The position numbers were made by a program, and so were the translations under genes. The notes beneath the pieces are model-generated. The model saw nothing but the letters and a program-made list of their open reading frames with translations, had not been told where the DNA came from and ran no database searches. A stretch of 64,000 nt of DNA. Source: Candidatus Kaiserbacteria bacterium. GTDB taxonomy: Bacteria > Patescibacteriota > Minisyncoccia > Phycocordibacterales > JABAAK01. The DNA lies in NCBI GenBank assembly GCA_028820405.1, contig JAPPJI010000021.1, positions 2,770 through 66,769 on the forward strand, in the 5' to 3' direction. Below, piece after piece: positions 8,641 through 62,665 of the stretch (positions within the stretch are counted from its first letter, which is position 1; each line of letters starts with the position of its first letter).

Positions 8641-8994
8641 CTATACAAATTCAATCACCGCTGACGTTCGCCCGCTCCCCGGTCGTGGCTCAACCTTCGC
8701 GATCCTCGTGTAGCCGCCGGAGTGCTCTTTGTACTTCGGTCCGAGAACTTCAATCAGCTTCTTCACAACGGTGCGATCGTTGTTAAACCGGGCGAGGAGG
8801 AGCCGTCTCGTTGCCACGTCATCCTTTCTTGCCGTTGTTACCAACTTTTCAACAAACGGTCGGACAGACTTTGCCCGAGCAACGGTGGTGTGCACCTTTT
8901 CTTCCAGAATAACGGAGCGAGCGAGCGAGCGAAGCAACTGCTTACGCTGCTGTCCGACCCGCCCAAATTTTCTCTGCTTTCTGTGGTACGCCAT
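8641..8994 (-). CDS. rplQ: 50S ribosomal protein L17
   Basis: MAYHRKQRKFGR...GYTRI signature. The start is at the internal ATG at 8994. Downstream of rpoA, the canonical order. Confidence 0.95.
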   Translation of the reverse strand: MAYHRKQRKFGRVGQQRKQLLRSLARSVILEEKVHTTVARAKSVRPFVEKLVTTARKDDVATRRLLLARFNNDRTVVKKLIEVLGPKYKEHSGGYTRIAKVEPRPGSGRTSAVIEFV

Positions 8995-11793: not shown

Positions 11794-11868
11794 AGCGGAT
11801 AATTTATCGTACCATAGAAACTCCACGCCACGCAAGACACGTGGCGTGGATAACCTAACTCAATGATT

Positions 11869-14220
11869 CTACTGGCTTGTTCCCGCATCCCCACTCGGGT
11901 TGGTAGACATTTGCTCCTGAATCTGGTTTGTTATTTCTGCAATCTGTTGCTCGAGAGCCGCAAGATCAGCTTGCGTATCCTCTGCCGCAACAACAAATGG
12001 TGCAAGGAAGGTGGTGGTGTCAGTCTCACTGTCAATGTAGACAATTACCTCACCCGTCACCTCTTCCCCTCGTGCTTCCTGGAACCTTCGAACCGCAGCG
12101 TCGGTCGCATCACCAAAGATATTCGTTTCATTTCCTGGAGATCCGGGACCTTCACTCGCAACGAGGAAGTCACCGCCCTGACTGTTGAGGAATCGCTGCA
12201 GGTCTCGCACCGGCTCCATAACAACACCTTTTCGCAAGGTAACCGGGTCACCAGTCGGTGTTGCTAAGACGACTACATCTTGATCTGGGGTGCTGTCCTC
12301 CTCTTCAACTGCTGCTGTATCGTCTTGCACCGGCTCTTCAACGATAAGTTGCGGTGCTGTCGGCTTCGTTGGGTCAACAACCGGCTCACTGCTGCCTGCG
12401 TCTTCTTGATCAACGGGCTGGCTGACAACATCACTGTCCTCGCTATCAGAAACTACCAATTCCGGAGCTGTTGGTTTCACGTCTTCGCTATTCTGGTCAA
12501 CACTTGACTCATCAGGAGTTTCTGAATCTCCGTCAGCCACAGGAATAACAATGGAACTTGCCTGGTCATCAGACGGAAGTTCCGGTGCCTGAATCCGCAG
12601 TACGTCTTCTACCTCACTTTCAATGGTGAAGTCCTTAATCGCAACAGGGTCTCCGCTGTTGATACTAAACGTACAGTCTTCGTAAACTCCGTCATCAAGT
12701 TTTGCCGTTCGTACCTCATGTTTCTCTGATACTGACAACTGGTCTCCGTCTCTCTTGACGACAAACTGACCGCTGCTCAGGAGGCGGTCATTGAAGTGCT
12801 TACACATGCCCGCACCGCCGATGGTAATCGTCGCGATACTCTCTGTCTCATCCCCTGAGAACCAGTGATCAACATCAATAGTAAATGACACCCGTCGCTT
12901 TCGTTCTTCGACAGAAACTTGCTCTATCGGATTACTCAGCAAAACTCCTTCCGGACTGTCAACCGTGAATGTCGGAATATCATGCACTTCTGAAACAGCA
13001 CCTGTGTCATCACGAAGAGCAATACTGCAGTCATAGGAACCGTTGTTCAGCGACAACGCAATGGTAACCGGTCCTGCCGCCACAACCTGGTCTTCAATGG
13101 CACAGCCATCACCGCTCATGGTAAGTATGCCGGGTACGCTTGCGGTAACGGTGTATGAAGGATACTGGTAGGTCACCCCTTCTCCAGACTCCTTGGTGAG
13201 AGATCCTTCGGTGAGCAGCGGCTGTGGTGCAGCTGTCACCACGCCGTCGACAACAGGACCTGTTTCCTCAGCAGCACCCTCCCCTGCCACAGCAGTACTT
13301 ACTGGATCTTCTTGTACAGCAATCGGTGCATCGCTTGCAACAGGAGTGCTGTCATCCTGAACGTCTGTTTCCTCTTCAACGGGACTCGCCTGTCCTTCCG
13401 GTACCACTACCGAATCTTCAACCGGTGCCGTTGGCGTGTCCTCCACAACAGGAACACTCTCATCCTGAGTATCCTCTGCTACCCCTTCAACATCTGGTGT
13501 CACCACTGGTTCAGATGCTACCCCCTCTTCAACAGGCACGACCGGAGTATCGCTCGTAACGGGAGCATCTTCACCTTGTGTGTCTGTTTCTTCTACGACA
13601 GCAGGGATTTCTGTGTCTACGACTGGTGCTGGTGGTGTGTCACTCACATCAGAAGCAGTGTCATCTTCAACTGGCGCGACAGGATCTGGCGTCTCTTCCG
13701 GTGCTGCTACCGGCTCCCCATCTACTGGTGCAGTCACGGGTACCTGCTCTTGTGCTTGCGGATCAGAGATCTGAGCAGCGTGTGTAACCTGCGTAAGTGA
13801 TCCTGATCCAAGCGAGTTTCCGCTCGTGTCAACAATGTCAGTACCGTCACCCGGTGCAGTGTAGGAAATGGTTGTTGCAACACCTTCAGGGAGCGGCTGC
13901 GAGAGCAGCAGTGTCACCGTCTGAGCATGAACAATAACGTGGTTCACCGCAAGACCTTCCTGGTCAGTAGCAAATCCGCCATCCCCGTCAATGTTTCTTG
14001 GGATGAGGGCTTCACTAACGGTAAGCGTAATGATCGATCCGCTCGGATCAACAGCACTGTCGGTAACGGTTAGTCCCACTACTTCCGTCTCCGTTGGGGC
14101 AGGTTGTCCTGCTACGTCCTGTTGCTGTGCACCAACGGTTGCGGGGAAAAGAAATAATAGGGCGATAAGTGCTGGGACAATACCAACACGTGCATATAAC
14201 TGCTTCATATAATTGAACAT
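11869..14220 (-). CDS. secreted, highly acidic Thr/Val/Pro/Glu/Asp-rich low-complexity protein with a C-terminal peptidoglycan-binding (PG_binding_1-like) domain
   Basis: Signal peptide (LIALLFLFPATVGAQQ). About 400 aa of acidic PV/ET/DT low complexity. The C-terminal LRKGVVMEPVRDLQRFLNSQG...GPGSPGNETNIFGDATDAAVRRFQ matches the PG-binding repeat (LxxGxxGxxVxxLQxxL...DGxFGxxTxxAVxxFQ). Confidence 0.7.
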   Translation of the reverse strand: MFNYMKQLYARVGIVPALIALLFLFPATVGAQQQDVAGQPAPTETEVVGLTVTDSAVDPSGSIITLTVSEALIPRNIDGDGGFATDQEGLAVNHVIVHAQTVTLLLSQPLPEGVATTISYTAPGDGTDIVDTSGNSLGSGSLTQVTHAAQISDPQAQEQVPVTAPVDGEPVAAPEETPDPVAPVEDDTASDVSDTPPAPVVDTEIPAVVEETDTQGEDAPVTSDTPVVPVEEGVASEPVVTPDVEGVAEDTQDESVPVVEDTPTAPVEDSVVVPEGQASPVEEETDVQDDSTPVASDAPIAVQEDPVSTAVAGEGAAEETGPVVDGVVTAAPQPLLTEGSLTKESGEGVTYQYPSYTVTASVPGILTMSGDGCAIEDQVVAAGPVTIALSLNNGSYDCSIALRDDTGAVSEVHDIPTFTVDSPEGVLLSNPIEQVSVEERKRRVSFTIDVDHWFSGDETESIATITIGGAGMCKHFNDRLLSSGQFVVKRDGDQLSVSEKHEVRTAKLDDGVYEDCTFSINSGDPVAIKDFTIESEVEDVLRIQAPELPSDDQASSIVIPVADGDSETPDESSVDQNSEDVKPTAPELVVSDSEDSDVVSQPVDQEDAGSSEPVVDPTKPTAPQLIVEEPVQDDTAAVEEEDSTPDQDVVVLATPTGDPVTLRKGVVMEPVRDLQRFLNSQGGDFLVASEGPGSPGNETNIFGDATDAAVRRFQEARGEEVTGEVIVYIDSETDTTTFLAPFVVAAEDTQADLAALEQQIAEITNQIQEQMSTNPSGDAGTSQ

Positions 14221-14227
14221 CGTACAA

Positions 14228-14316
14228 AAATAATAAATAAACGGGCGACACTTTCACACTTACAATGGTATCACACCGCTGTCATTGGTATGAGACTATG
14301 TGGAAATGTCGCCCGT
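14228..14316 (-). terminator. long hairpin followed by a U-rich tract immediately after the trmD stop. Putative intrinsic terminator or regulatory structure.
   Basis: ACGGGCGACA (14241-14250) pairs with TGTCGCCCGT (14307-14316). The pairing extends partially (cttcaca/tgtggaa). The loop is about 40 nt. On the minus strand it is followed by UUUAUUUAUUAUUUUUG. Confidence 0.35.
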
Positions 14317-18962: not shown

Positions 18963-18974
18963 CTCACCCCCTAA
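18963..18974. repeat. left copy of a ~12-bp imperfect direct repeat (CTCACCCCCTAA) flanking the AT-rich island
   Basis: Seen in the sequence. The right copy CTCACCCCCCTA lies at 22641-22652. Each copy overlaps the stop codon of a minus-strand gene (KAP NTPase, rpoC). Confidence 0.3.
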
Positions 18975-20346
18975 CACTTGGTATGCTATCACCATGAAAT
19001 TCCTCAATGTATAAAAGCAATACATCCTTGAATGTTTTTAGAACCTCTCCTTCGTGTATTACATCACCTCCCTTTATGCTTAATTCTCCTTCACGAACGA
19101 CCAACCCTTCAATGTGCCTACCTTTAAGCAAACGTGGCAGAAATGGTGCCTTGTGGGACAGGTTTACTGCTGACACAATGAACTTACAGTGGTCTCTCAA
19201 ACCATCAAACATATCACTCTGACCATATTTATTATCAACTATGGGTTCACAATCGTTAGAAAGAGATTGCTTTATAGCGTCAACTAAAGCTTTCTTTGAT
19301 CCGACAGTCTTTATTAAAAAAGACACAGTTCTTTTCATGGGTCTTCCGTATTCCCTCTCTTCAATCATAGAGAACCCTGAACTATTTCTTTTTTGTGAAT
19401 ACTGTAGCGTCCCCAACCCATTGAGGACCTGTCGCAAGTTTATGATATTTTTTCTGAAGAAGTTTTTCAAAAGGAATAATGACAACCAGACACTTATATA
19501 TTGACCTGTTTTATCTGTCACTTGTTTATTTGGTTGTGGGCCAAAAACGGTACCCATATATTCAGCAATAATACCTTTCGGGTCATACTCAAAAACTTCC
19601 TTGCTGTAAAATTTATCAAGATACCCTTGTGAATCTGTGCCAGCACCATATTTGTGGTGAAAGATTGATCGTAGGTTATTATAGTCCGCTACAAAAATTA
19701 CGTGATCAAAACCAAGCCTTTTAGCAACTGTCTTCTCCTCATCCTCGCCAACAAATAAAGAAAATACATTAAATAGTCTGAAAATATGTTCGGGATCAAG
19801 TCGATCCATATCATCAATAACCAAAACTTTCTTCTTTTCTTTCCCCGCAACTTTGCACAACATTTTTCTGATTTTTTCTTCAGTAATCGTCCCAAAAGAT
19901 TCTTTTATCTCTTCAATCGCAGCAACTATGAAATTCGCAATTGGATTGACCCTCCCCAGCAAAGATGCGGTTTTCCACCCTATCTTTACCAACTTTTTCA
20001 TTTTTGATTTTTCCTTGTGCCCTGACAAGGGTCCTTTTTCTCCACCTTGTTCCATAATAGATATCATCAAGTCTTCCTTCATGGTTTCTATCAGTACCTC
20101 ACTTCCCACTATTTGATAAGCTGTGGGGCGAAGACGTACCCAAAAGTAATATTCCTCATACTGCTTAAAAAACCTCTCGATAAAAAACGTCTTCCCTATA
20201 CCAAATTTGCCAGAAAACAAGATTCTACTGTTTCTCAACATCTCCAAATGATGTTTAAAATGATCAAACAAGGGATCTATCGGTATTATCATACCGCTTC
20301 CAACCAACCCGTCTTGGGATTCTTTAGGATCTTTTGTTACATCCAT
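18964..20346 (-). CDS. KAP-family P-loop NTPase
   Basis: Walker A SGKFGIGKTFF. The Walker B context KVLVIDDMDRLDPEHIF matches the KAP signature (hhhhIDDLDRxxP). AT-rich codon usage unlike the flanking genes. Confidence 0.7.
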   Translation of the reverse strand: MDVTKDPKESQDGLVGSGMIIPIDPLFDHFKHHLEMLRNSRILFSGKFGIGKTFFIERFFKQYEEYYFWVRLRPTAYQIVGSEVLIETMKEDLMISIMEQGGEKGPLSGHKEKSKMKKLVKIGWKTASLLGRVNPIANFIVAAIEEIKESFGTITEEKIRKMLCKVAGKEKKKVLVIDDMDRLDPEHIFRLFNVFSLFVGEDEEKTVAKRLGFDHVIFVADYNNLRSIFHHKYGAGTDSQGYLDKFYSKEVFEYDPKGIIAEYMGTVFGPQPNKQVTDKTGQYISVWLSLFLLKNFFRKNIINLRQVLNGLGTLQYSQKRNSSGFSMIEEREYGRPMKRTVSFLIKTVGSKKALVDAIKQSLSNDCEPIVDNKYGQSDMFDGLRDHCKFIVSAVNLSHKAPFLPRLLKGRHIEGLVVREGELSIKGGDVIHEGEVLKTFKDVLLLYIEEFHGDSIPSVRG

Positions 20347-20461
20347 ACACTAATCACATGATAGTGTAATAACGATATGGAGCACAAGTCAAGACATTGA
20401 CCGACAGTTTCCGATCACTATTCATTTGTAGCCGTGCAAGGAGGTTATACTGAATATAAGC

Positions 20462-21541
20462 ATGGTCACCAAAAGCCTAAACAAGGGATTGCATACTGCA
20501 AAGAGAGAAAAGAAAGATGAGTTCTATACCCAACTTACTGATATTGAAAAAGAGCTGAAACATTACAAAGATCAGTTTCGTAATAAAGTTGTGTATTGTA
20601 ATTGCGATGACCCTTATGAAAGTAATTTTTTTAAATATTTTTCTCTCAGTTTCAACCACTTGGGGTTAAAAAAGCTTATCACCACGAGTTACAAACCATC
20701 ACCAATTACTGGCAAACAATTGCCTTTGGTTGAAATTGAAGGATTAAAGCCAGAAGGCAAAGAACCTTTCAAACTTGAGATCAATGAAGTTTTAGACAAT
20801 AACAAAGATGGTGCTGTTGACTTAACAGATGTTGAGTGGCTATTGAAGAATGATGCGAACACCGCCACACCACTTGATAGTGACGGTGATTTTCGCAGTG
20901 AAGAATGTGTAGAATTTCTCAAAGAAGCAGATGTTGTTGTAACGAACCCTCCTTTTTCACTTTTTCGCGAGTACCTTGCTCAGTTGATGGAGTATGATAA
21001 GAAGTTTTTAATCATTGGAAACATCAACGCCATCACGTACAAAGAGACATTTCCGTTAATCCAGAAAAACAAGGTATGGCTTGGAGTAAGCATCCATAGC
21101 GGAGATCGTGAATTCAGAGTTCCTGACCACTACCCTCTAGAGGCTGCCGGGTATCGTGTTGATGACGAAGGCAACAAATACATTCGCATAAAAGGTGTTC
21201 GATGGTTTACAAATCTTGACACAGAAAAGCGGCACGAAAGTCTTGTTTTGTACAAGAAGTACACCCCCGAGGAGTTTCCAAAATATGACAACTATGATGC
21301 CATAAATGTAAATAAAACCTCTGACATCCCGATGGATTATGCTGATGCAATGGGTGTGCCGATCACTTTTTTGGACAAACACAACCCCGATCAATTTGAG
21401 ATAGTAAATTCAAATAATGTAAGGTTAAGCGAAAAAGTTCCGACCAAAGACTCGGGACTTATCAAAGACAAAGAAAGTGCAATAAACGGCAAGCCGACCT
21501 ATGTTCGAGTTGTCATAAAAAACAAGGAGGTGACAAAATAA
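20462..21541 (+). CDS. N6-adenine DNA methyltransferase, M.EcoRI-like (EcoRI_methylase family)
   Basis: The SDEFYTQ N-terminal motif, VVYCNCDDP, FFKYFSLxFxxLGLKKLI, VVTNPPFSLFREYL (NPPF motif IV), DKKFLIIGNINAITYKE and YPKYDNYDAINVNKTxDIP are all as recalled for M.EcoRI. AT-rich. Confidence 0.8.
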   Translation: MVTKSLNKGLHTAKREKKDEFYTQLTDIEKELKHYKDQFRNKVVYCNCDDPYESNFFKYFSLSFNHLGLKKLITTSYKPSPITGKQLPLVEIEGLKPEGKEPFKLEINEVLDNNKDGAVDLTDVEWLLKNDANTATPLDSDGDFRSEECVEFLKEADVVVTNPPFSLFREYLAQLMEYDKKFLIIGNINAITYKETFPLIQKNKVWLGVSIHSGDREFRVPDHYPLEAAGYRVDDEGNKYIRIKGVRWFTNLDTEKRHESLVLYKKYTPEEFPKYDNYDAINVNKTSDIPMDYADAMGVPITFLDKHNPDQFEIVNSNNVRLSEKVPTKDSGLIKDKESAINGKPTYVRVVIKNKEVTK

Positions 21542-21542
21542 C

Positions 21543-22637
21543 ATGAAAATAGAACTCAAAAGAATTCCTGTTCGTGAGGCAGTTAATGGCTACAAAGATA
21601 ATGCCGAGGAGGGTGTTACGGCATACGGCGGCAAACTTGATGTTCGCCCAAAATACCAACGCGAGTTTGTTTATGACGACAGACAGCGTGATGCGGTAAT
21701 TGAAACAATCAAACAAGATTTTCCGCTTAATGTGATGTACTGGATGACAAAAGATGACGGAATTAATTACGAAATGATTGACGGTCAACAGCGAACTATC
21801 AGTATTGGTCAGTATGTGAGTGGTAATTTTGCACTTGCTAATCGTTTTTTCTATAACCTCACAAAAGAAGAGCAGAATCAGATCCTTGACTACGAGCTCA
21901 TGATTTACTTCTGCGAAGGAACAGACAAAGAACGTTTAGATTGGTTTAAGGTTATCAACATCGCCGGTGAAAAACTGACCGATCAAGAAATACGGAATGC
22001 GGTATATACCGGACCATGGCTTTCTGATGCAAAATTGAAATTCAGTAAAACGAGCTGTGCAGCGTACAAATTAGCAAACGACGGAGGAACACTTTTGAAC
22101 GGTGAATTAAACAGACAGCACTACCTAGAAACCGCCCTCTCTTGGATTAATCATGGAGAAATAGATGGTTACATGGCAAAGCATCAGCACGAACCAAACG
22201 CAAACAACCTATGGAGTTACTTTCAAGATGTGATCATGTGGGTTCGCAAGACATTCCCAAAATATCGAAAAGAAATGAGAGGTGTGAATTGGGGCGGGCT
22301 GCACAACGAATCTAAAGACAAAAAATTGGATGCTGAGAAACTAGAAACTGAGGTTGCTCAATTAATGCAAGATGAAGATGTAACAAGAAGGTCGGGCATT
22401 TACCCTTATGTCCTCACAAGAGATGAGAGACACCTCCAAATACGTGCGTTTACCGACAACATGAAACGAGAAGTATATGAGGAACAAGAGGGAATCTGCA
22501 AAAAATGTGAAGAACAATTCCCATTCGAAGAAATGGAGGCTGACCACATTAAGCCGTGGCACGAAGGCGGCAAAACGACCTCAGAAAATTGTCAGATGTT
22601 GTGCAAGGATTGCAATCGGAGAAAATCCGGAAAATAA
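21543..22637 (+). CDS. DUF262 (ParB/Srx-like, DGQQR motif) + C-terminal HNH nuclease fusion (COG1479/GmrSD-related)
   Basis: YQREFVY and IDGQQRTISIGQY DUF262 signatures. C-terminal CKKCEEQ...ADHIKPWHEGGKTTSENCQMLCKDCNRRK is a canonical zinc-finger HNH. The start codon lies 1 nt after the MTase stop. Confidence 0.8.
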   Translation: MKIELKRIPVREAVNGYKDNAEEGVTAYGGKLDVRPKYQREFVYDDRQRDAVIETIKQDFPLNVMYWMTKDDGINYEMIDGQQRTISIGQYVSGNFALANRFFYNLTKEEQNQILDYELMIYFCEGTDKERLDWFKVINIAGEKLTDQEIRNAVYTGPWLSDAKLKFSKTSCAAYKLANDGGTLLNGELNRQHYLETALSWINHGEIDGYMAKHQHEPNANNLWSYFQDVIMWVRKTFPKYRKEMRGVNWGGLHNESKDKKLDAEKLETEVAQLMQDEDVTRRSGIYPYVLTRDERHLQIRAFTDNMKREVYEEQEGICKKCEEQFPFEEMEADHIKPWHEGGKTTSENCQMLCKDCNRRKSGK

Positions 22638-22640
22638 CAA

Positions 22641-22652
22641 CTCACCCCCCTA
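22641..22652. repeat. right copy of the ~12-bp imperfect direct repeat (CTCACCCCCCTA) flanking the island
   Basis: See the left copy at 18963-18974. Confidence 0.3.
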
Positions 22653-39354: not shown

Positions 39355-41076
39355 CTATCGACGCAGAAATGCGATGTCTTTTTCAAAGTCCCTCGCCTTG
39401 GCCAGCACGCCGTCACAGTACAGCCGTGCAACCCGGGACTGCCAGTTTGATCCTGCGTAGTATCGCCGCGATGCGGTGCACTCATTTTTCAGGGCACCGA
39501 GTTCGGTAAGGTAGATGCCGGAGACAAAGAATGCATCACGCGGGTTCCACGGATTTGACGGCCGGTTGCCGCCGGTGTGCCTGCGGACAATATCTTTGTC
39601 TCTGCGATACTCCCATGAGCCGTCATAGAAATTGATCTGATTGACTGCTGACCGGGTTGACGGCCCGACCTGACCGGTTCCGCGTGTCAGGTTGTACGGT
39701 CGCAAGATGCGTGACGCATAGCGTTCTTGAAACCTCGTGACTGCCTGTGCCACCGCGCTGCCGTACGTGCCCGTCTCATTTCCCGGACTCCCCGGACCGA
39801 TCGAAGCAACGGTGAACCCTTGCCTGTTGAGAAATCGCTGCAGCCGCTTCACATCAGACCCGGAGCTCCCTATCTGCAGCGTGGTGTTCCCGCGGATAAC
39901 CCTGCTGGTACTGGTCATGGAACACGTTCCCGTTTCCCGATTCACCATACCGCCGTAGCAGACCCACGTTGACGGGATGAACTGTGCGGGACCCATCGCA
40001 CCGCCCCAACCAAACCCGGGTCGTGCTGAGACGCGAAGTTCGTTCGGATCGTCATACCCGAGCAGTTTCACAATCTTCGGGAACAGCGGCTGGTCTCGTG
40101 TCGGGTGCATGTCTTTTTGATAGGTGCCGGTTCCGACATTCTTTCCGAGATCTGATTCGTGCTTAATGACGCCGAGGAGAAATGCCGGGCGGATACCTGT
40201 CGCCGCATGCACCTCATTTGCATACGTCAGTGCCTGCTCAAACGAGATGGCACCCCCGCCGAAGAGGTCAAAGAGCCGGTTTCGTATCTTCGCGGCCCGT
40301 TCCCGATATTCCTCAAGATACTCTTTGGTATCGTTCTCTTCTGCAATCTGTCCTTTGAGTACCTGGTCTTTCTCTTCACGCTTCTCCTGCACCCGTTGTG
40401 CCGAGACTTCCTGGTGCTGGCGGATACGGCCCTGCTCATCTTTCTTCTCACGCAACTCTTCAATGCTTGCGGCAATGCGATGACGGAGACCGTTGATATC
40501 ATTAACGGATTCTTCGGTCACCTTTCGCAGTGACCGATACTCATTTTCTTCAAAAAAATACGAAGAGAGGGTTGTGTTTGAAAGCAGCAGGCTCACAAAG
40601 CCCCGCTGTTCGGTTTCATTAAGATTGCGAAAGAGGGTTGTGAGGAACAGTTTCCGGTCCTCCACCTTCTCGCCAAGCCCTTCCACCGCCGTCTCTTTAT
40701 CAATAATCTCTTCACCGAGATCCCCAATGATATCGTCAATTGTCTGTATGTTTGAGAGGACCCGGTTAATCTCTTTGTCAATTACCGCAATCTCCTGCTC
40801 GGTATTCAAACGATCAGCCTGCTGCTGATTCAATTTTTCTTCACCAACTTTAACGCGATGTTCCATGTATTCCTGACATTTCTCCATCTCCCGCTTCAGC
40901 TCCCCCGGCCGCGTGGTTTCATCAGCAAGGATCTCCGCACACTTCGCTTCCATAGAGGTGTCAGCCTCAATATACGGAACGGTGTGCACTGCCAACGCAA
41001 CAAACAAAACAGTTACGTATAGCATAATGACGGTACGTATTCTTATTTCTCTTTGATACACACGCATCTCCCCCAC
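39355..41076 (-). CDS. membrane-anchored coiled-coil protein with MltB-like lytic transglycosylase domain and C-terminal peptidoglycan-binding domain
   Basis: N-terminal TM. ~250 aa of heptad-like charged coil. Catalytic-region motifs HESDLG (ES) and GAMGPAQFIPSTW (as in GAMGQxQFMPxT of MltB family). C-terminal GSDVKRLQRFLNRQG...GPGSPGNETGTYGSAVAQAVTRFQ is PG-binding. Confidence 0.65.
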   Translation of the reverse strand: MGEMRVYQREIRIRTVIMLYVTVLFVALAVHTVPYIEADTSMEAKCAEILADETTRPGELKREMEKCQEYMEHRVKVGEEKLNQQQADRLNTEQEIAVIDKEINRVLSNIQTIDDIIGDLGEEIIDKETAVEGLGEKVEDRKLFLTTLFRNLNETEQRGFVSLLLSNTTLSSYFFEENEYRSLRKVTEESVNDINGLRHRIAASIEELREKKDEQGRIRQHQEVSAQRVQEKREEKDQVLKGQIAEENDTKEYLEEYRERAAKIRNRLFDLFGGGAISFEQALTYANEVHAATGIRPAFLLGVIKHESDLGKNVGTGTYQKDMHPTRDQPLFPKIVKLLGYDDPNELRVSARPGFGWGGAMGPAQFIPSTWVCYGGMVNRETGTCSMTSTSRVIRGNTTLQIGSSGSDVKRLQRFLNRQGFTVASIGPGSPGNETGTYGSAVAQAVTRFQERYASRILRPYNLTRGTGQVGPSTRSAVNQINFYDGSWEYRRDKDIVRRHTGGNRPSNPWNPRDAFFVSGIYLTELGALKNECTASRRYYAGSNWQSRVARLYCDGVLAKARDFEKDIAFLRR

Positions 41077-57679: not shown

Positions 57680-59359
57680 TTATACACTTTCTTTCGAACG
57701 GTCCTCCTCTTGCAGGTCACCAAGTGACACCCAGCCGTCCTCGTAGCGGATCGGCGGCGCTTCTTTTTCCTCTTCCTTCTTCGGCACCTGCAGCGGCTTC
57801 GGCATACCGCTCATCTTTGCCTCCTGAATACTGTTTCGCAATTCAGATGCGTCCTCCTTCCTGTCATCAGACCGCTGCTGCTTCTGATCAGGTTTCTGCT
57901 TATCAGCACGATCATCTCTTCGTTCCCTGCCGCCCAGTGCATCTCGAACCGCTTTTGTAACTCCTCTTTGCGGTGCCTTCCCTTTCTGCCCCGGCTTCTT
58001 GAACGCTCCTCTACCACCCGGTTTTTCTTTCTTCTCTTTCCAATCCTGCTCAATATTCTTTCGCACCTGGTCTTCAATCTCTTCCCGATCAACACCGTAC
58101 TGCTGCATTGACTGTTTGATAACCTGGTCAGCGATAGAAACGGGTGGTGGTGCCGGCTTCATGTATGTCCGGGCAGAAAATGGCGTTGATCCTGCACCGC
58201 CAATATTGAGTGTGAGGAACATGTGGAACCGCGGGAGTGCGACGAGATCTTCCTCCGTTACCGCCGGTGCAAATTGTTTTGCAATGACCTCGGCATCAAC
58301 GGGACCGACGCGGAACGAAATAAAGGTGCCGACGTTACCGAACACTGCATCACGAATCGCATTCCCGTCACCTGAATCACCGCTGTATATTTGACCGATG
58401 TACTGGTGTGCAAGGATGAGGTTGAGTTTGTATTTTCTCGCCTCAGACAAAATGCTGCTGAATGTCGAGTTTGCAAATGACTGAAACTCGTCGACGTAAA
58501 AGTTGCAGGCAGGCGTCGCATCAAGTTGTTGTGGTGAGAGGTCACTTCGCGAGAGTGCGGAGAGGTAGATCTTGGTGGTAAAAAGGATACCGAGCATGCG
58601 TGCATTGTTGTCTCCGATCCGCCCCTTTGAAAGATTCACTAAAAGCACTTTCCCCTCATCCATCACCTGCCGAAAGTTAAACGCTGATTTCTTTTGACCG
58701 ATAATGTTTCGCATCAGCGGGTTTGAGGTAAACTGTCCGAGTTTGTTTTGAATGGCCGGCGTTGCATCCTGTACGTACCGTTCAGAATAGTTCGCATACT
58801 CATCAACCCAGTACCGACGAACCTGCGGATCTTTCACATTCTCAACAACTTTTGTTCGAAAATCTTTACTCGAGTACATACGACCGACGTCAAGCAGTGT
58901 CGTACCCGGATACTCAAGCAGTGCGAGGAGCGTATTTTGTAAAATGTAGGCCATGCGATCAGACCACGACGTCTCTCCCCAGATTTTTTCAAACGATGCC
59001 ATGAGACTGCTGACAACATGGTGCCGATGATCATACCCGACGTCTTCCATAATATTGAGACCAATCGGCCGATCCTGCAGGTGAGGGGCAAAATAAATGA
59101 CCCGATCCAAACTGTTCGGCGTGACATACTCCAAAAGACTGTCGACAGACTGACCGTGCGGGTCCATAAAGATGAGTCCTTCGCCGTTCTCCATGTCCTG
59201 CATGGCAAGCATCTCAAGAAACGTTGACTTTCCCGTTCCCGTCTGACCGATAACGTAGATGTGTCGGGAGCGATCCTCTTCCCGAATACCGAATCGAATC
59301 ACCTCACCACGTTTCTCCGTTTCTCCGATAAATACTTTTCTGTCAGGATCGTAGGTCAT
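57680..59359 (-). CDS. FtsK/HerA-superfamily P-loop ATPase of the TraD/TraG/VirD4 coupling-protein type, with charged low-complexity C-terminal tail
   Basis: Walker A VIGQTGTGKSTFLE and Walker B-like NFYVDEFQSF. There are no N-terminal TM segments. The last ~130 aa are K/E/R/D/Q-rich. Confidence 0.5.
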   Translation of the reverse strand: MTYDPDRKVFIGETEKRGEVIRFGIREEDRSRHIYVIGQTGTGKSTFLEMLAMQDMENGEGLIFMDPHGQSVDSLLEYVTPNSLDRVIYFAPHLQDRPIGLNIMEDVGYDHRHHVVSSLMASFEKIWGETSWSDRMAYILQNTLLALLEYPGTTLLDVGRMYSSKDFRTKVVENVKDPQVRRYWVDEYANYSERYVQDATPAIQNKLGQFTSNPLMRNIIGQKKSAFNFRQVMDEGKVLLVNLSKGRIGDNNARMLGILFTTKIYLSALSRSDLSPQQLDATPACNFYVDEFQSFANSTFSSILSEARKYKLNLILAHQYIGQIYSGDSGDGNAIRDAVFGNVGTFISFRVGPVDAEVIAKQFAPAVTEEDLVALPRFHMFLTLNIGGAGSTPFSARTYMKPAPPPVSIADQVIKQSMQQYGVDREEIEDQVRKNIEQDWKEKKEKPGGRGAFKKPGQKGKAPQRGVTKAVRDALGGRERRDDRADKQKPDQKQQRSDDRKEDASELRNSIQEAKMSGMPKPLQVPKKEEEKEAPPIRYEDGWVSLGDLQEEDRSKESV

Positions 59360-60508: not shown

Positions 60509-62665
60509 CTACCCGTCCCACCGACCTTCTTTTACCAATTTTTTCAACTGCCGAACACCTGCTTCTCCCGACTCAGTTATACCAGATCGCTGCAACTCAC
60601 TCGGCACCGTTTTCTGCTCCATAAGGGTTATTACATACCGATGTAAATCCATCGTCGCTTCATCACCAAAGAGATCACCCGTTTTCCTAATATCCCGATC
60701 AAATACCCGACGGAACCGCCTTGAAAGATACCGCTCCGTGTCTGCAAGACTGGAAAATGAATAGATATCATCCCCCCGATCCTTCAACGCCTCAAAGAGG
60801 TCGGATGCTTCTTTTCGCGAAGAAAATGCAATGTTTGAGACGTAGTCTACCACACCCTGCACCTCACCTGCTGCAATAACTTTGTGAGCGGTTTCTACGT
60901 GATCGATTCCTTCAAATGATGACAGATTCCGCATCACAGCCCACCCTTCTTTTTCTTGTATGAGCCGTTCAGCCAATGCGACATGATCAACACCTTCAAG
61001 TAGTGAGAGGTGTTCGGCAATCTCAGCGGTCCTGCCGACCCTCAGTGCCCTATCTATAATTGCGTCACTGTCAAGATGCGTAAACGCACTGCGATGCTCC
61101 TCAAGATACCAAAGACCGCAAAACTCAACGAACGAAAGAATAACCTCTTGAGGATCCATGCCATCGAGATCGAGCATGTATTCAACAACCGCCTTGGCTT
61201 GACCGTCTTTCATGAGCTCAGCAGCATACTGCATGCGATCAATTTGAAATCCTTTGATGTGCTTTGCAACATGATCACCCAGATCATGCTGCAAGAGACG
61301 CCATGCAATATTTTTATGGTCGGCAGCAATAAATCGCTGTATGTTTTCGGCAACACGATTGCCGTACCCTGCGGTAATCAATGTGTTAGCCGTGTCCGCA
61401 TTGAGGTCATCAAATCTCTCCATATGCTCGGCGATCACGCGCTCCCGATCATCTCGTGCTAACCCGCGTGCAACGTCATTACTTAAACCAGAGAAGTGTG
61501 TTATGTACTCAGCGAGAGATCTTCCCTGACCTTTCTCAAGAAGCATGAGAGCAACGTCCGTATGATCCACCCCCTTAAAACTCGGAAAGAATTCAGCAAC
61601 AGACTGTGCATCCATTCCGCCTTTGTCCATAAGTGCACGGACAACGGTATCGTGAGAAACAGCATCAAATTTTGAAATATGCGGAACAATACGCCACCCG
61701 GATCCTTTTTGTATGAGGATGTCCACCACTTTCTGCTGATCAACCGCAAGACGCTTCAGGTATTGAGGGATGACGGCACTATCGACCTTGTACACCAGTT
61801 TCAAAAATATGTTTTCCGGGTCAACATCAAACTGATCAGCGTACGTGACAACACTCTCACTTCCGTACGACCCCTGCTGCAAAAGATCATCTATAACTGA
61901 TTCGTGATCAACACCGTGCATTTTTGAAAGATGTTTTGCAACGGATTCACCCTGCTGATTTTGTATGAGGCTTCGAACAAGCACTCTTTGATCAATGGTG
62001 AAGTTTTGTACAAACAATGCAACAACATCTCCCTTCCCTCGTGCAATAAACTCTTGTGCGAGACGATCATGGTCAAGGTTGTTAAAGTTTGGAAGATGTT
62101 TTGCAAGTGATTCAAGTGAACCGGCAGCCAGTAATCGATCCGCAACCGCTTTGTGATCAATATTGGACATTTCCGGAAGATGTTTTGCAACCGCCTCACC
62201 TTCCCCAACGTTAATCAGTTGATAGACAACAAACCTATCAAGACCTTCAAAATCAAATGCGGCTATGTTTTCGGCAACGAGAGATCCTTCGCCGGAGTCA
62301 ATAATCTCATATGCAATCCACGAATGGTTAAGATGAAAATTAGTAAGATGTTCAATCACGACGCTTCCTTCGCCGGACTGAATAAACAGAGATGCTGTCT
62401 CAACATGGTCAATGTCCGGAAATTGGCTAAGATGCCGGGCGATAAGCGGTGCTTTCCCTTGTTCTATTGCAAAGCGAATTGCCCCGGAAATATCTTGCTC
62501 ACGTTGCAAGGATTCAAGCATCTCCTCGTCGGTTCCCTGCTCAAGCACTGATGCAAGATCGTTCTTTGGCGCCTCTTGCTCTTTTCTTTTCCCCCGCCCC
62601 AAGGTAAACATCATTCGCTTCTTCATGTAATCAGTATGGCACGAAAACAGCACGGACACTTGCAT
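60509..62665 (-). CDS. 718-aa tandem-repeat (alpha-solenoid-like) protein of unknown function
   Basis: About 18 copies of a ~34-aa unit with consensus xxHLxxFxGxDHxxVAxxLIxxGxGxxVxE (e.g. AKHLPEMSNIDHKAVADRLLAAGSLESL, AKHLSKMHGVDHESVIDDLLQQGSYGSE). The repetition is also visible at the DNA level (atgttttgcaac...). Confidence 0.6.
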   Translation of the reverse strand: MQVSVLFSCHTDYMKKRMMFTLGRGKRKEQEAPKNDLASVLEQGTDEEMLESLQREQDISGAIRFAIEQGKAPLIARHLSQFPDIDHVETASLFIQSGEGSVVIEHLTNFHLNHSWIAYEIIDSGEGSLVAENIAAFDFEGLDRFVVYQLINVGEGEAVAKHLPEMSNIDHKAVADRLLAAGSLESLAKHLPNFNNLDHDRLAQEFIARGKGDVVALFVQNFTIDQRVLVRSLIQNQQGESVAKHLSKMHGVDHESVIDDLLQQGSYGSESVVTYADQFDVDPENIFLKLVYKVDSAVIPQYLKRLAVDQQKVVDILIQKGSGWRIVPHISKFDAVSHDTVVRALMDKGGMDAQSVAEFFPSFKGVDHTDVALMLLEKGQGRSLAEYITHFSGLSNDVARGLARDDRERVIAEHMERFDDLNADTANTLITAGYGNRVAENIQRFIAADHKNIAWRLLQHDLGDHVAKHIKGFQIDRMQYAAELMKDGQAKAVVEYMLDLDGMDPQEVILSFVEFCGLWYLEEHRSAFTHLDSDAIIDRALRVGRTAEIAEHLSLLEGVDHVALAERLIQEKEGWAVMRNLSSFEGIDHVETAHKVIAAGEVQGVVDYVSNIAFSSRKEASDLFEALKDRGDDIYSFSSLADTERYLSRRFRRVFDRDIRKTGDLFGDEATMDLHRYVITLMEQKTVPSELQRSGITESGEAGVRQLKKLVKEGRWDG

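Follow-up and report, generated by a model that had tools for sequence, protein, structure and literature searches.

We propose that a gene of a Candidatus Kaiserbacteria bacterium encodes an adhesin-like, multi-domain protein that is exported by the Sec pathway, anchored non-covalently to the cell wall and used to display immunoglobulin-like (Ig-like) domains on polyanionic spacers, and we give this reading a probability of about 0.6. The gene lies on a 64,000-nucleotide stretch of contig JAPPJI010000021.1 (assembly GCA_028820405.1, positions 2,770 to 66,769), which we call the window. A preliminary description had presented its product as a very acidic secreted protein of 783 residues, anchored by a peptidoglycan-binding module that a second envelope protein encoded in the window would share. 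Our proposal is built on the C-terminal domain of the protein, on its two Ig-like regions and on a family of orthologues found at the same chromosomal position. All feature coordinates are collected in Table 1.

Results

The C-terminal domain is a predicted wall anchor

The C-terminal part of the protein contains one peptidoglycan-binding domain of the PG_binding_1 family (PF01471), recognised by Pfam at residues 669-725 with 35.0 bits for a cut-off of 23. The domain that the preliminary description had called a C-terminal repeat is thus real, but it is present as a single copy. It was modelled with AlphaFold2 (AF2) from a 52-sequence alignment, and the predicted local distance difference test score (pLDDT) was 86 overall and above 95 over the core, helices 1 and 2. 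The modelled order is helix 1 (669-681), the GPGSPGNET loop, helix 2 (704-716), a beta-hairpin (725-738) and a long amphipathic helix. When the model was compared with the PDB using Foldseek, the top matches were all PG_binding_1 domains with a probability of 1.0, namely those of SleB (6tci), the Streptomyces albus Zn DD-peptidase (1lbu), SleC, CtpB and phiKZ gp144 (3bkh). The modelling that had been recommended at the outset returned most of the expected fold.

The resemblance to the solved members of the family goes beyond a profile match above threshold. The core made of helix 1, loop and helix 2 superposes on 6tci, 4xxt, 5nm7 and 3bkh at 1.4-2.4 Å over about 65 residues (2.2 Å over 65 columns for the N-domain of SleB, 1.4 Å for gp144), and the window protein has the conserved LQ..LN and FQ motifs. 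From these features, the domain is very probably able to bind peptidoglycan. Two features set it apart from its solved relatives: nine inserted residues, G-x-G-S-P-G-N-E-T, in the loop that joins helices 1 and 2, and, in the model of the window protein and in its orthologues, a beta-hairpin and then a long helix where the third helix of canonical domains would be. It also differs from the known examples in that it is carried by a non-enzymatic Ig-domain protein and not by a wall hydrolase. The C-terminal helix shows a heptad-like spacing of hydrophobic residues (L753, L756, I760, I763, I767 and M771). It is kept in the orthologue of locus L083 and absent from the orthologue P0122, both of which have the same anchor domain with its beta-hairpin.

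Other means of attachment were looked for. The C-terminus (ending in QEQMSTNPSGDAGTSQ) was read for an LPXTG motif and a hydrophobic tail, and the 783-residue sequence for a C-terminal transmembrane segment and a lipobox, and none was seen; Pfam and NCBIfam profile scans found no SLH or other S-layer family in the protein. At the other end, the N-terminus MKQLYARVGIVPALIALLFLFPATVGA, followed by QQQ, is laid out like a Sec signal peptide (K/R, a hydrophobic core, then VGA before QQ), and export by this route is predicted. The A-x-A-Q ending of this segment recurs in three orthologues (P0122, P0127 and P0155), and a SecA gene is present within the window.

The reading frame and the signal peptide announced in the preliminary description were both recovered. 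The NCBI record P0001, from a Candidatus Kaiserbacteria metagenome-assembled genome (MAG), gives the protein in the same frame as a 779-amino-acid "peptidoglycan-binding protein" that begins at the second methionine, a start also used by an orthologue. The marked acidity was likewise borne out, with 150 D+E residues for 27 K+R, an isoelectric point (pI) of 4.05 and a net charge of about -123. The gene is surrounded by translation genes, all on the same strand. Both its GC content and its GC content at third codon positions (GC3) are ordinary for the contig and match those of the neighbouring genes, and a horizontal acquisition was rejected on these grounds.

A loop-insertion subfamily of PG_binding_1 in the Candidate Phyla Radiation

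An exhaustive HMMER search with the whole protein against 1.84 billion cluster representatives gave 1369 matches at E<=1e-3, 164 of them at E<=1e-10. The counts that follow were taken from the 149 best of these 1369 matches, with the protein itself excluded. Of the 149, 129 have the pattern G-x-G-x-x-G-[NKQ..]-E-[TS] in register within a PG_binding_1-like domain, and 237 copies of the loop yielded the consensus G-[PAV]-G-S-[PK..]-G-[NQK]-E-[TS]. When a 52-domain profile was aligned with the solved structures 4xxt and 7rum, the motif appeared as a nine-residue insertion in the loop that leads from helix 1 to the conserved FG in front of helix 2. The carrier proteins span 157 to 7151 amino acids; the loop domain usually occurs as a tandem pair, with two copies in 90 of the 129 carriers, and the last copy lies at most 80 residues from the C-terminus in 97 of them.

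The taxonomic spread of this variant was judged from a few named cluster members. The named carriers belong to the Kaiserbacteria, Campbellbacteria, Ryanbacteria, Magasanikbacteria and Paceibacterota, and the labels from outside the Candidate Phyla Radiation (CPR) come from two MAG-derived records, assigned to the Atribacteria (a 3.4-kb contig) and the Alphaproteobacteria. These comparisons support the prediction that the GxGSPGNET-loop domains form a distinct, reused wall-binding module that is CPR-wide. The lineage-specific module of the preliminary description is therefore retained as a distinct and reused subtype, and its privacy to this genome is not. A tblastn search of a phage collection with the subfamily consensus returned only canonical PG_binding_1 domains, without the insertion, and the string GSPGNET occurs in none of the papers of the library that was searched.

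Other searches were less productive. When the whole protein was compared with PDB sequences, all matches were at chance level. A word-indexed search found only the protein itself, the candidate list being filled by low-complexity words, and the same search with the C-terminal 130 residues gave no match.

Within the window, the six-frame translation contains exactly two occurrences of GPGSPG, and the subfamily hidden Markov model (HMM) detected only two domains, with 71 and 124 bits. The second one belongs to the transglycosylase-like protein encoded further along the stretch, in which PG_binding_1 is recognised at residues 405-453 with 37.7 bits for the same cut-off of 23, so that both proteins have a profile match. 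The two domains had been described as almost verbatim copies. BLASTP does align them well beyond the nonapeptide (33 of 55 residues identical, E 2e-13, residues 661-715 against 399-451), which corresponds to 60% identity, and they are alike only through helix 2, after which they diverge; the second protein retains the canonical third-helix sequence GTGQVGPSTRSAVNQI. The identical nine residues in the two proteins result from the conservation of the subfamily and not from a recent or private exchange between the two genes.

The second protein had been called MltB-like. It matches SLT_2 (25.7 bits for a cut-off of 24.3, over profile positions 21-170 of 292 only) and scores 11 bits on TIGR02283 (MltB_2), where 248 are required; judged from its sequence, the protein is SLT_2-like and not an MltB equivalog. 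Its PG_binding_1 domain is not terminal. It lies within an insertion of about 95 residues (roughly 386-480) in the transglycosylase catalytic domain, as shown by comparison with P0076, a homologue without the domain (such homologues have about 470 residues). The insertion is present in the Kaiserbacteria-type homologues of 540-575 residues, and of the 121 homologues listed for the transglycosylase-like protein, at least 56 keep the loop variant.

Two Ig-like regions separated by acidic spacers

Between the signal peptide and the anchor, folded and low-complexity regions alternate. The N-terminal domain is of the SWM_repeat type (PF13753); the window protein contains a single copy, which scores 22.2 bits, under the Pfam cut-off of 27, and the orthologue P0122 reaches 30.3 bits for the same cut-off. 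The repeat unit of the giant proteins P0123-P0125, which are 3000-6750 amino acids long, is a homologue of this domain (about residues 54-153). Indeed, the N-terminal region aligns to P0124 at E 3e-60, and P0124 itself scores 1553 bits on SWM_repeat.

The second region is a tandem module related to Ig and fibronectin type III (FnIII) domains. It is the only part kept in all four orthologues, the window protein included, with 44-48% identity and four invariant cysteines. Its structural matches are to the Ig/FnIII fold only, none being enzyme-like, and an enzymatic role for the middle region was rejected on this basis. A scan of metagenome contigs with the tandem-Ig alignment found no relative. 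We also observed that the giant proteins P0128 (7151 amino acids), P0213 (3819) and P0126 (5783) contain many Big_13-like units of the form G.Y.DC...L.D.AGN.S, a unit that corresponds to the first half of the four-cysteine module of the window protein. P0128 and P0213 terminate in the loop-insertion PG-binding domain, and P0128 is encoded on a 731,333-bp contig, probably the one that also carries P0016, a homologue of the transglycosylase-like protein.

The preliminary description had estimated about 400 residues of low complexity. Sliding-window composition and counts per segment reduce this figure to about 296 residues, split into two blocks that separate the folded regions. Tandem Repeats Finder detected no tandem repeats in the DNA of the gene, which rules out the acidic tracts as a recent expansion of a repeated unit. 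In spacer 2, two short motifs attracted our attention, KPTAPELVV (residues 582-590; 12451-12477) and KPTAPQLIVEEP (residues 619-630; 12331-12366), both on the minus strand. Related motifs occur in the L083 orthologue (TKPRAPQIEETP, three times, at about 8650-8900) and in P0122 (PLTPTIVEEPP). A conserved linear motif so close to the wall anchor could serve for processing or for an interaction.

Positional orthologues between trmD and infA

Orthologues are located between trmD and infA/rpsM in three independent contigs (loci L081, L082 and L083). The context of this slot, rpsP-KH-trmD followed, after the gene, by infA-rpsM-rpsK-rpsD-rpoA on the same strand, is that of the window. P0122 (1023 amino acids) is 41% identical to the window protein over 413 residues (E 1e-93), with 28% identity at the N-terminus; the other relatives are P0127 (750 amino acids) and P0155 together with P0130. 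The L083 copy is frameshifted, as are the neighbouring rpsD and rpoA, and in tblastn it covers residues 1-160 and 320 to 775 of the window protein, anchor and C-terminal helix included. Across these orthologues, the folded parts of the window protein are conserved at 41-49% identity. In the Abawacabacteria locus L046, a glycosyltransferase gene follows trmD, so the trmD-infA slot is specific to the clade rather than general to the CPR. The matches listed in a scan of genome contigs for TrmD, with the universal CGHYEGID pattern, came for the most part from Clostridia and other Bacillota; four of them were CPR loci, and none was from Kaiserbacteria.

The orthologues share with the window protein the slot, the signal peptide and the four-cysteine tandem Ig module, and differ from it in what lies in between. 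Pfam recognises four to six CBM5/12 repeats in them (CBM_5_12, PF02839; 77-90 bits for a cut-off of 26.2) and, in P0122, also a Big_13 domain (27.6 bits for 27) and PG_binding_1. In the window protein, the CBM_5_12 profile gave no match at E<=1. The position of the repeat array and of one extra beta domain is taken by spacer 1, which is 188 residues long, whereas P0155 has a short acidic linker of about 60 residues. The window protein gives no CBM5/12 signal, and spacer 1 has no aromatic residues; this genome has therefore lost the array and the adjacent beta domain, and the acidic linker has expanded. The orthologues are less acidic (pI 4.6-4.9 for 4.05), and of 94 other carriers only 2 have, upstream of the anchor module, a tract that is strongly acidic, most being Ser/Thr-rich in this region. 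Since the positional orthologues carry CBM5/12 repeats in place of the long acidic spacer, acidity is not a conserved feature, and the tract looks like an expanded spacer rather than a conserved functional part.

P0127 (L082, 3758-6010) illustrates the modularity of the family. It keeps six CBM5/12 repeats and the four-cysteine tandem Ig module, and infA begins 53 bp past its stop codon, which leaves no room for a missed exon or frameshift.

Table 1. Positions in the window of the gene, its domains, its flanking elements and the second protein carrying the loop motif.
Feature	Position	Strand	Residues	Description or basis
Whole gene	11869..14220	-	1-783	783-aa open reading frame (ORF) from first ATG; 779 aa from probable true start, ATG at 14208
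Putative signal peptide	14128..14220	-	1-31	ends in ALIALLFLFPATVGA before QQQ; read from sequence
N-terminal Ig-like domain, SWM_repeat type	13786..14103	-	about 40-145	Pfam and homology
Acidic spacer 1	13222..13785	-	146-333 (188 aa)	47 D/E, 0 K/R; rich in P, V, T, A; no aromatics
Tandem Ig-like/FnIII-like module	12580..13221	-	334-547 (214 aa)	four conserved Cys; alignment, structural matches
Acidic spacer 2	12256..12579	-	548-655 (108 aa)	30 D/E, 2 K/R; composition counts
PG_binding_1 domain, loop-insertion subfamily	11986..12255	-	656-745	Pfam, AF2, Foldseek
GPGSPGNET	12124..12150	-	691-699	9-residue insertion relative to solved PG_binding_1 domains
C-terminal amphipathic helix	11905..11982	-	747-772	AF2 model; tblastn with L083
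Hairpin just past stop codon	11822..11850	-		13-bp stem; folding free energy (dG) -26.3 kcal/mol, z -4.7
Promoter-like site directly upstream of gene	14230..14257	-		GTGAAA-16-TATTAT; consensus match only
Second protein	39355..41076	-	573 aa	N-terminal membrane anchor, coiled coil, SLT_2-type lytic transglycosylase domain
PG_binding_1 domain in second protein	39667..39882	-	399-470	Pfam, BLASTP, subfamily HMM
GPGSPGNET in second protein	39772-39798			

Flanking elements and other features of the window

The hairpin just downstream of the gene overlaps the probable GTG start of infA as well as TTATCCAC, a conserved element. The wider element, GTTATCCAC(G/A)...CTTGCGTGGC, lies between the surface gene and infA and is invariant in the four syntenic loci (window 11800-11875, minus strand; L081 9100-9215; L082 6000-6085; L083 9340-9420); it is extended into a hairpin in the window only, and not in the other three loci. 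The sequence TTATCCAC(A) is the DnaA-box consensus, and a promoter-like TTGCGT-18-TACGAT comes after the element. The hairpin and the element may act as a terminator, as an infA promoter or operator, or as a translational control element.

Two further regions of the window deserve mention. A defence-like cluster (18964-22637) is located between dnaG and large ORFs starting at 22650, and comprises a KAP-family P-loop NTPase (18964-20346, minus strand), an EcoRI-type adenine methyltransferase (20462-21541, plus strand, 505 bits) and a nuclease with GmrSD_N and HNH domains (21543-22637, plus strand). A 718-amino-acid ORF (60509-62665, minus strand) has no Pfam match and consists of repeats of about 36 residues, V(A/I)xHLxxFxxxDHxxVAxxLIxxGxG, that suggest an array of alpha-helical units; a TrwB/VirD4-like coupling-protein ATPase (57680-59359, minus strand) is encoded near it.

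Discussion

According to our proposal, the PG_binding_1 domain would hold the protein non-covalently on the peptidoglycan of the cell that produces it, once Sec export has taken place. We favour the cell's own wall because the same domain subtype is present in its own wall-remodelling enzyme and because no other anchor (transmembrane tail, LPXTG or lipobox) was seen. The spacers would behave as extended stalks, spacer 2 crossing the wall and spacer 1 pushing the N-terminal domain outward, and the disulfide-type tandem Ig module and the SWM_repeat Ig-like domain would be carried across the wall and past it. Most carriers have two anchor domains, and the presence of only one in the window protein is perhaps offset by an oligomerisation of the protein via its C-terminal helix. 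The CBM5/12 repeats of the orthologues suggest that the ancestral role of the family may have been glycan binding or adhesion, the corresponding cassette having been lost in the window copy.

Several observations weigh against this proposal. The loss of the CBM5/12 array, the sole recognisable ligand-binding array of the family, leaves an adhesive role of the window copy unsupported, and no ligand can be named for any of the Ig-like domains, the model of the tandem module being itself of moderate confidence (pLDDT 66). As for the anchor, the Pfam match covers only profile positions 3-49 of 57, and the hairpin at 725-738 stands where the model should have the canonical third helix. P0127 lacks the PG-binding domain, and the SWM_repeat domain as well, and therefore anchoring through such a domain is not essential to the family. 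Finally, wall binding, localisation and expression of the window protein are all predictions drawn from sequence.

The absence of an anchor in P0127, which shows that the family can function without one, lends some support to a different view, in which PG_binding_1 would bind to a host cell's peptidoglycan (or pseudomurein-like wall), bridging epibiont and host. CPR bacteria are commonly episymbionts, the CBM5/12 glycan-binding repeats of the orthologues are consistent with binding to a foreign surface, and Kuroda et al. proposed that Paceibacteria use proteins with peptidoglycan-binding domains for host attachment (PMC10936435). However, a domain occupied by the host would leave the attachment to the producer unexplained, as the protein has no other anchor; the domain subtype is built into the producer's own wall-remodelling enzyme, and in most carriers the module is extreme C-terminal, which is the usual layout for self-anchoring. 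For these reasons we hold a host-wall adhesin to be unlikely, and anchoring to the cell's own wall remains our preferred reading.

One could also imagine that the acidic tracts are themselves the functional part, forming a cation-binding, teichoic acid-like or S-layer-like coat or masking phage receptors, as had been suggested in the preliminary description. The net charge of about -123, the 47 acidic and no basic residues of spacer 1 and the location of the gene on the same strand as the highly expressed translation genes around it would agree with such a coat. Yet acidity is precisely what the family does not conserve, given the CBM5/12 repeats and the higher pI of the orthologues and the rarity of acidic tracts (2 of 94) among the mostly Ser/Thr-rich carriers; moreover, the profile scans found no SLH or S-layer domain, the DNA has no tandem repeats and there is no sign of self-assembly, and we consider a polyanionic coat improbable. 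The same loss of the CBM5/12 array and of one beta domain, in a family plastic enough for P0127 to do without its SWM domain and anchor, might instead mark a gene in decay, its low-complexity tract being neutral filler in a protein heading for loss. This we regard as very improbable, because the frame of 783 codons is uninterrupted, the signal peptide, Ig-like regions and anchor show good conservation (41-49% identity), neither GC nor GC3 is unusual for the contig, and the gene has a promoter-like site on one side and a strong hairpin on its 3' side. A Sec-exported, wall-anchored protein displaying Ig-like domains thus remains the reading that we propose.

In monoderm bacteria, wall-binding modules that recur in many surface proteins are a familiar feature. 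The layout of the window protein is similar to that of LysM, SLH, CWB2 and GW proteins, with a signal peptide, displayed domains, a low-complexity spacer expected to span the wall and a terminal, reused and often tandem wall module; it differs in that the anchor fold is PG_binding_1, none of those modules being detected, and that wall binding is here a prediction. The N-terminal domain links the protein to the SWM_repeat giants, named after the cyanobacterial SwmB, to whose repeat unit it is homologous, although it occurs here as a single sub-threshold copy and without any motility context. In cultured Paceibacteria, some of the most strongly expressed genes code for extracellular proteins that have peptidoglycan-binding and Ig-like domains (Kuroda et al. 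2024, mBio, PMC10936435). Those proteins are secreted, combine the same two kinds of domain and come from the same phylum-level group; compared by description only, they differ from the window protein in that they originate from Yanofskyibacteriaceae and Minisyncoccaceae, also have PKD domains and were proposed to bind archaeal hosts. By analogy, their expression fits an abundant surface protein, and it is not evidence for the window gene.

As far as our literature and family searches show, neither the loop-insertion subfamily nor the trmD-X-infA family has been separately described. Both are variations within a familiar scheme, and the protein is of a fairly ordinary kind. We may speculate, as a doubtful extension of our results, that the GxGSPGNET module is a general surface-display anchor of the CPR, a counterpart of LPXTG, SLH and LysM with a loop tuned to a CPR-specific wall chemistry, and that the trmD-X-infA gene encodes a major, strongly expressed protein for contact with host or substrate, whose ligand cassette (a CBM5/12 array or a polyanionic spacer) would be exchanged among closely related lineages in step with changes of host or of phage pressure.

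Most CPR bacteria have not been cultured, and the ways in which they construct their surface and attach to hosts are poorly understood. A recognisable PG_binding_1 variant that marks well over a thousand clusters of predicted secreted CPR proteins, with sizes ranging from small to giants of 7000 amino acids, provides a handle for listing candidate surface proteins. In Kaiserbacteria-related contigs, a fixed slot inside a translation-gene cluster houses a fast-evolving, predicted surface protein, in which the ligand-binding cassette appears to be replaceable by a plain acidic spacer.

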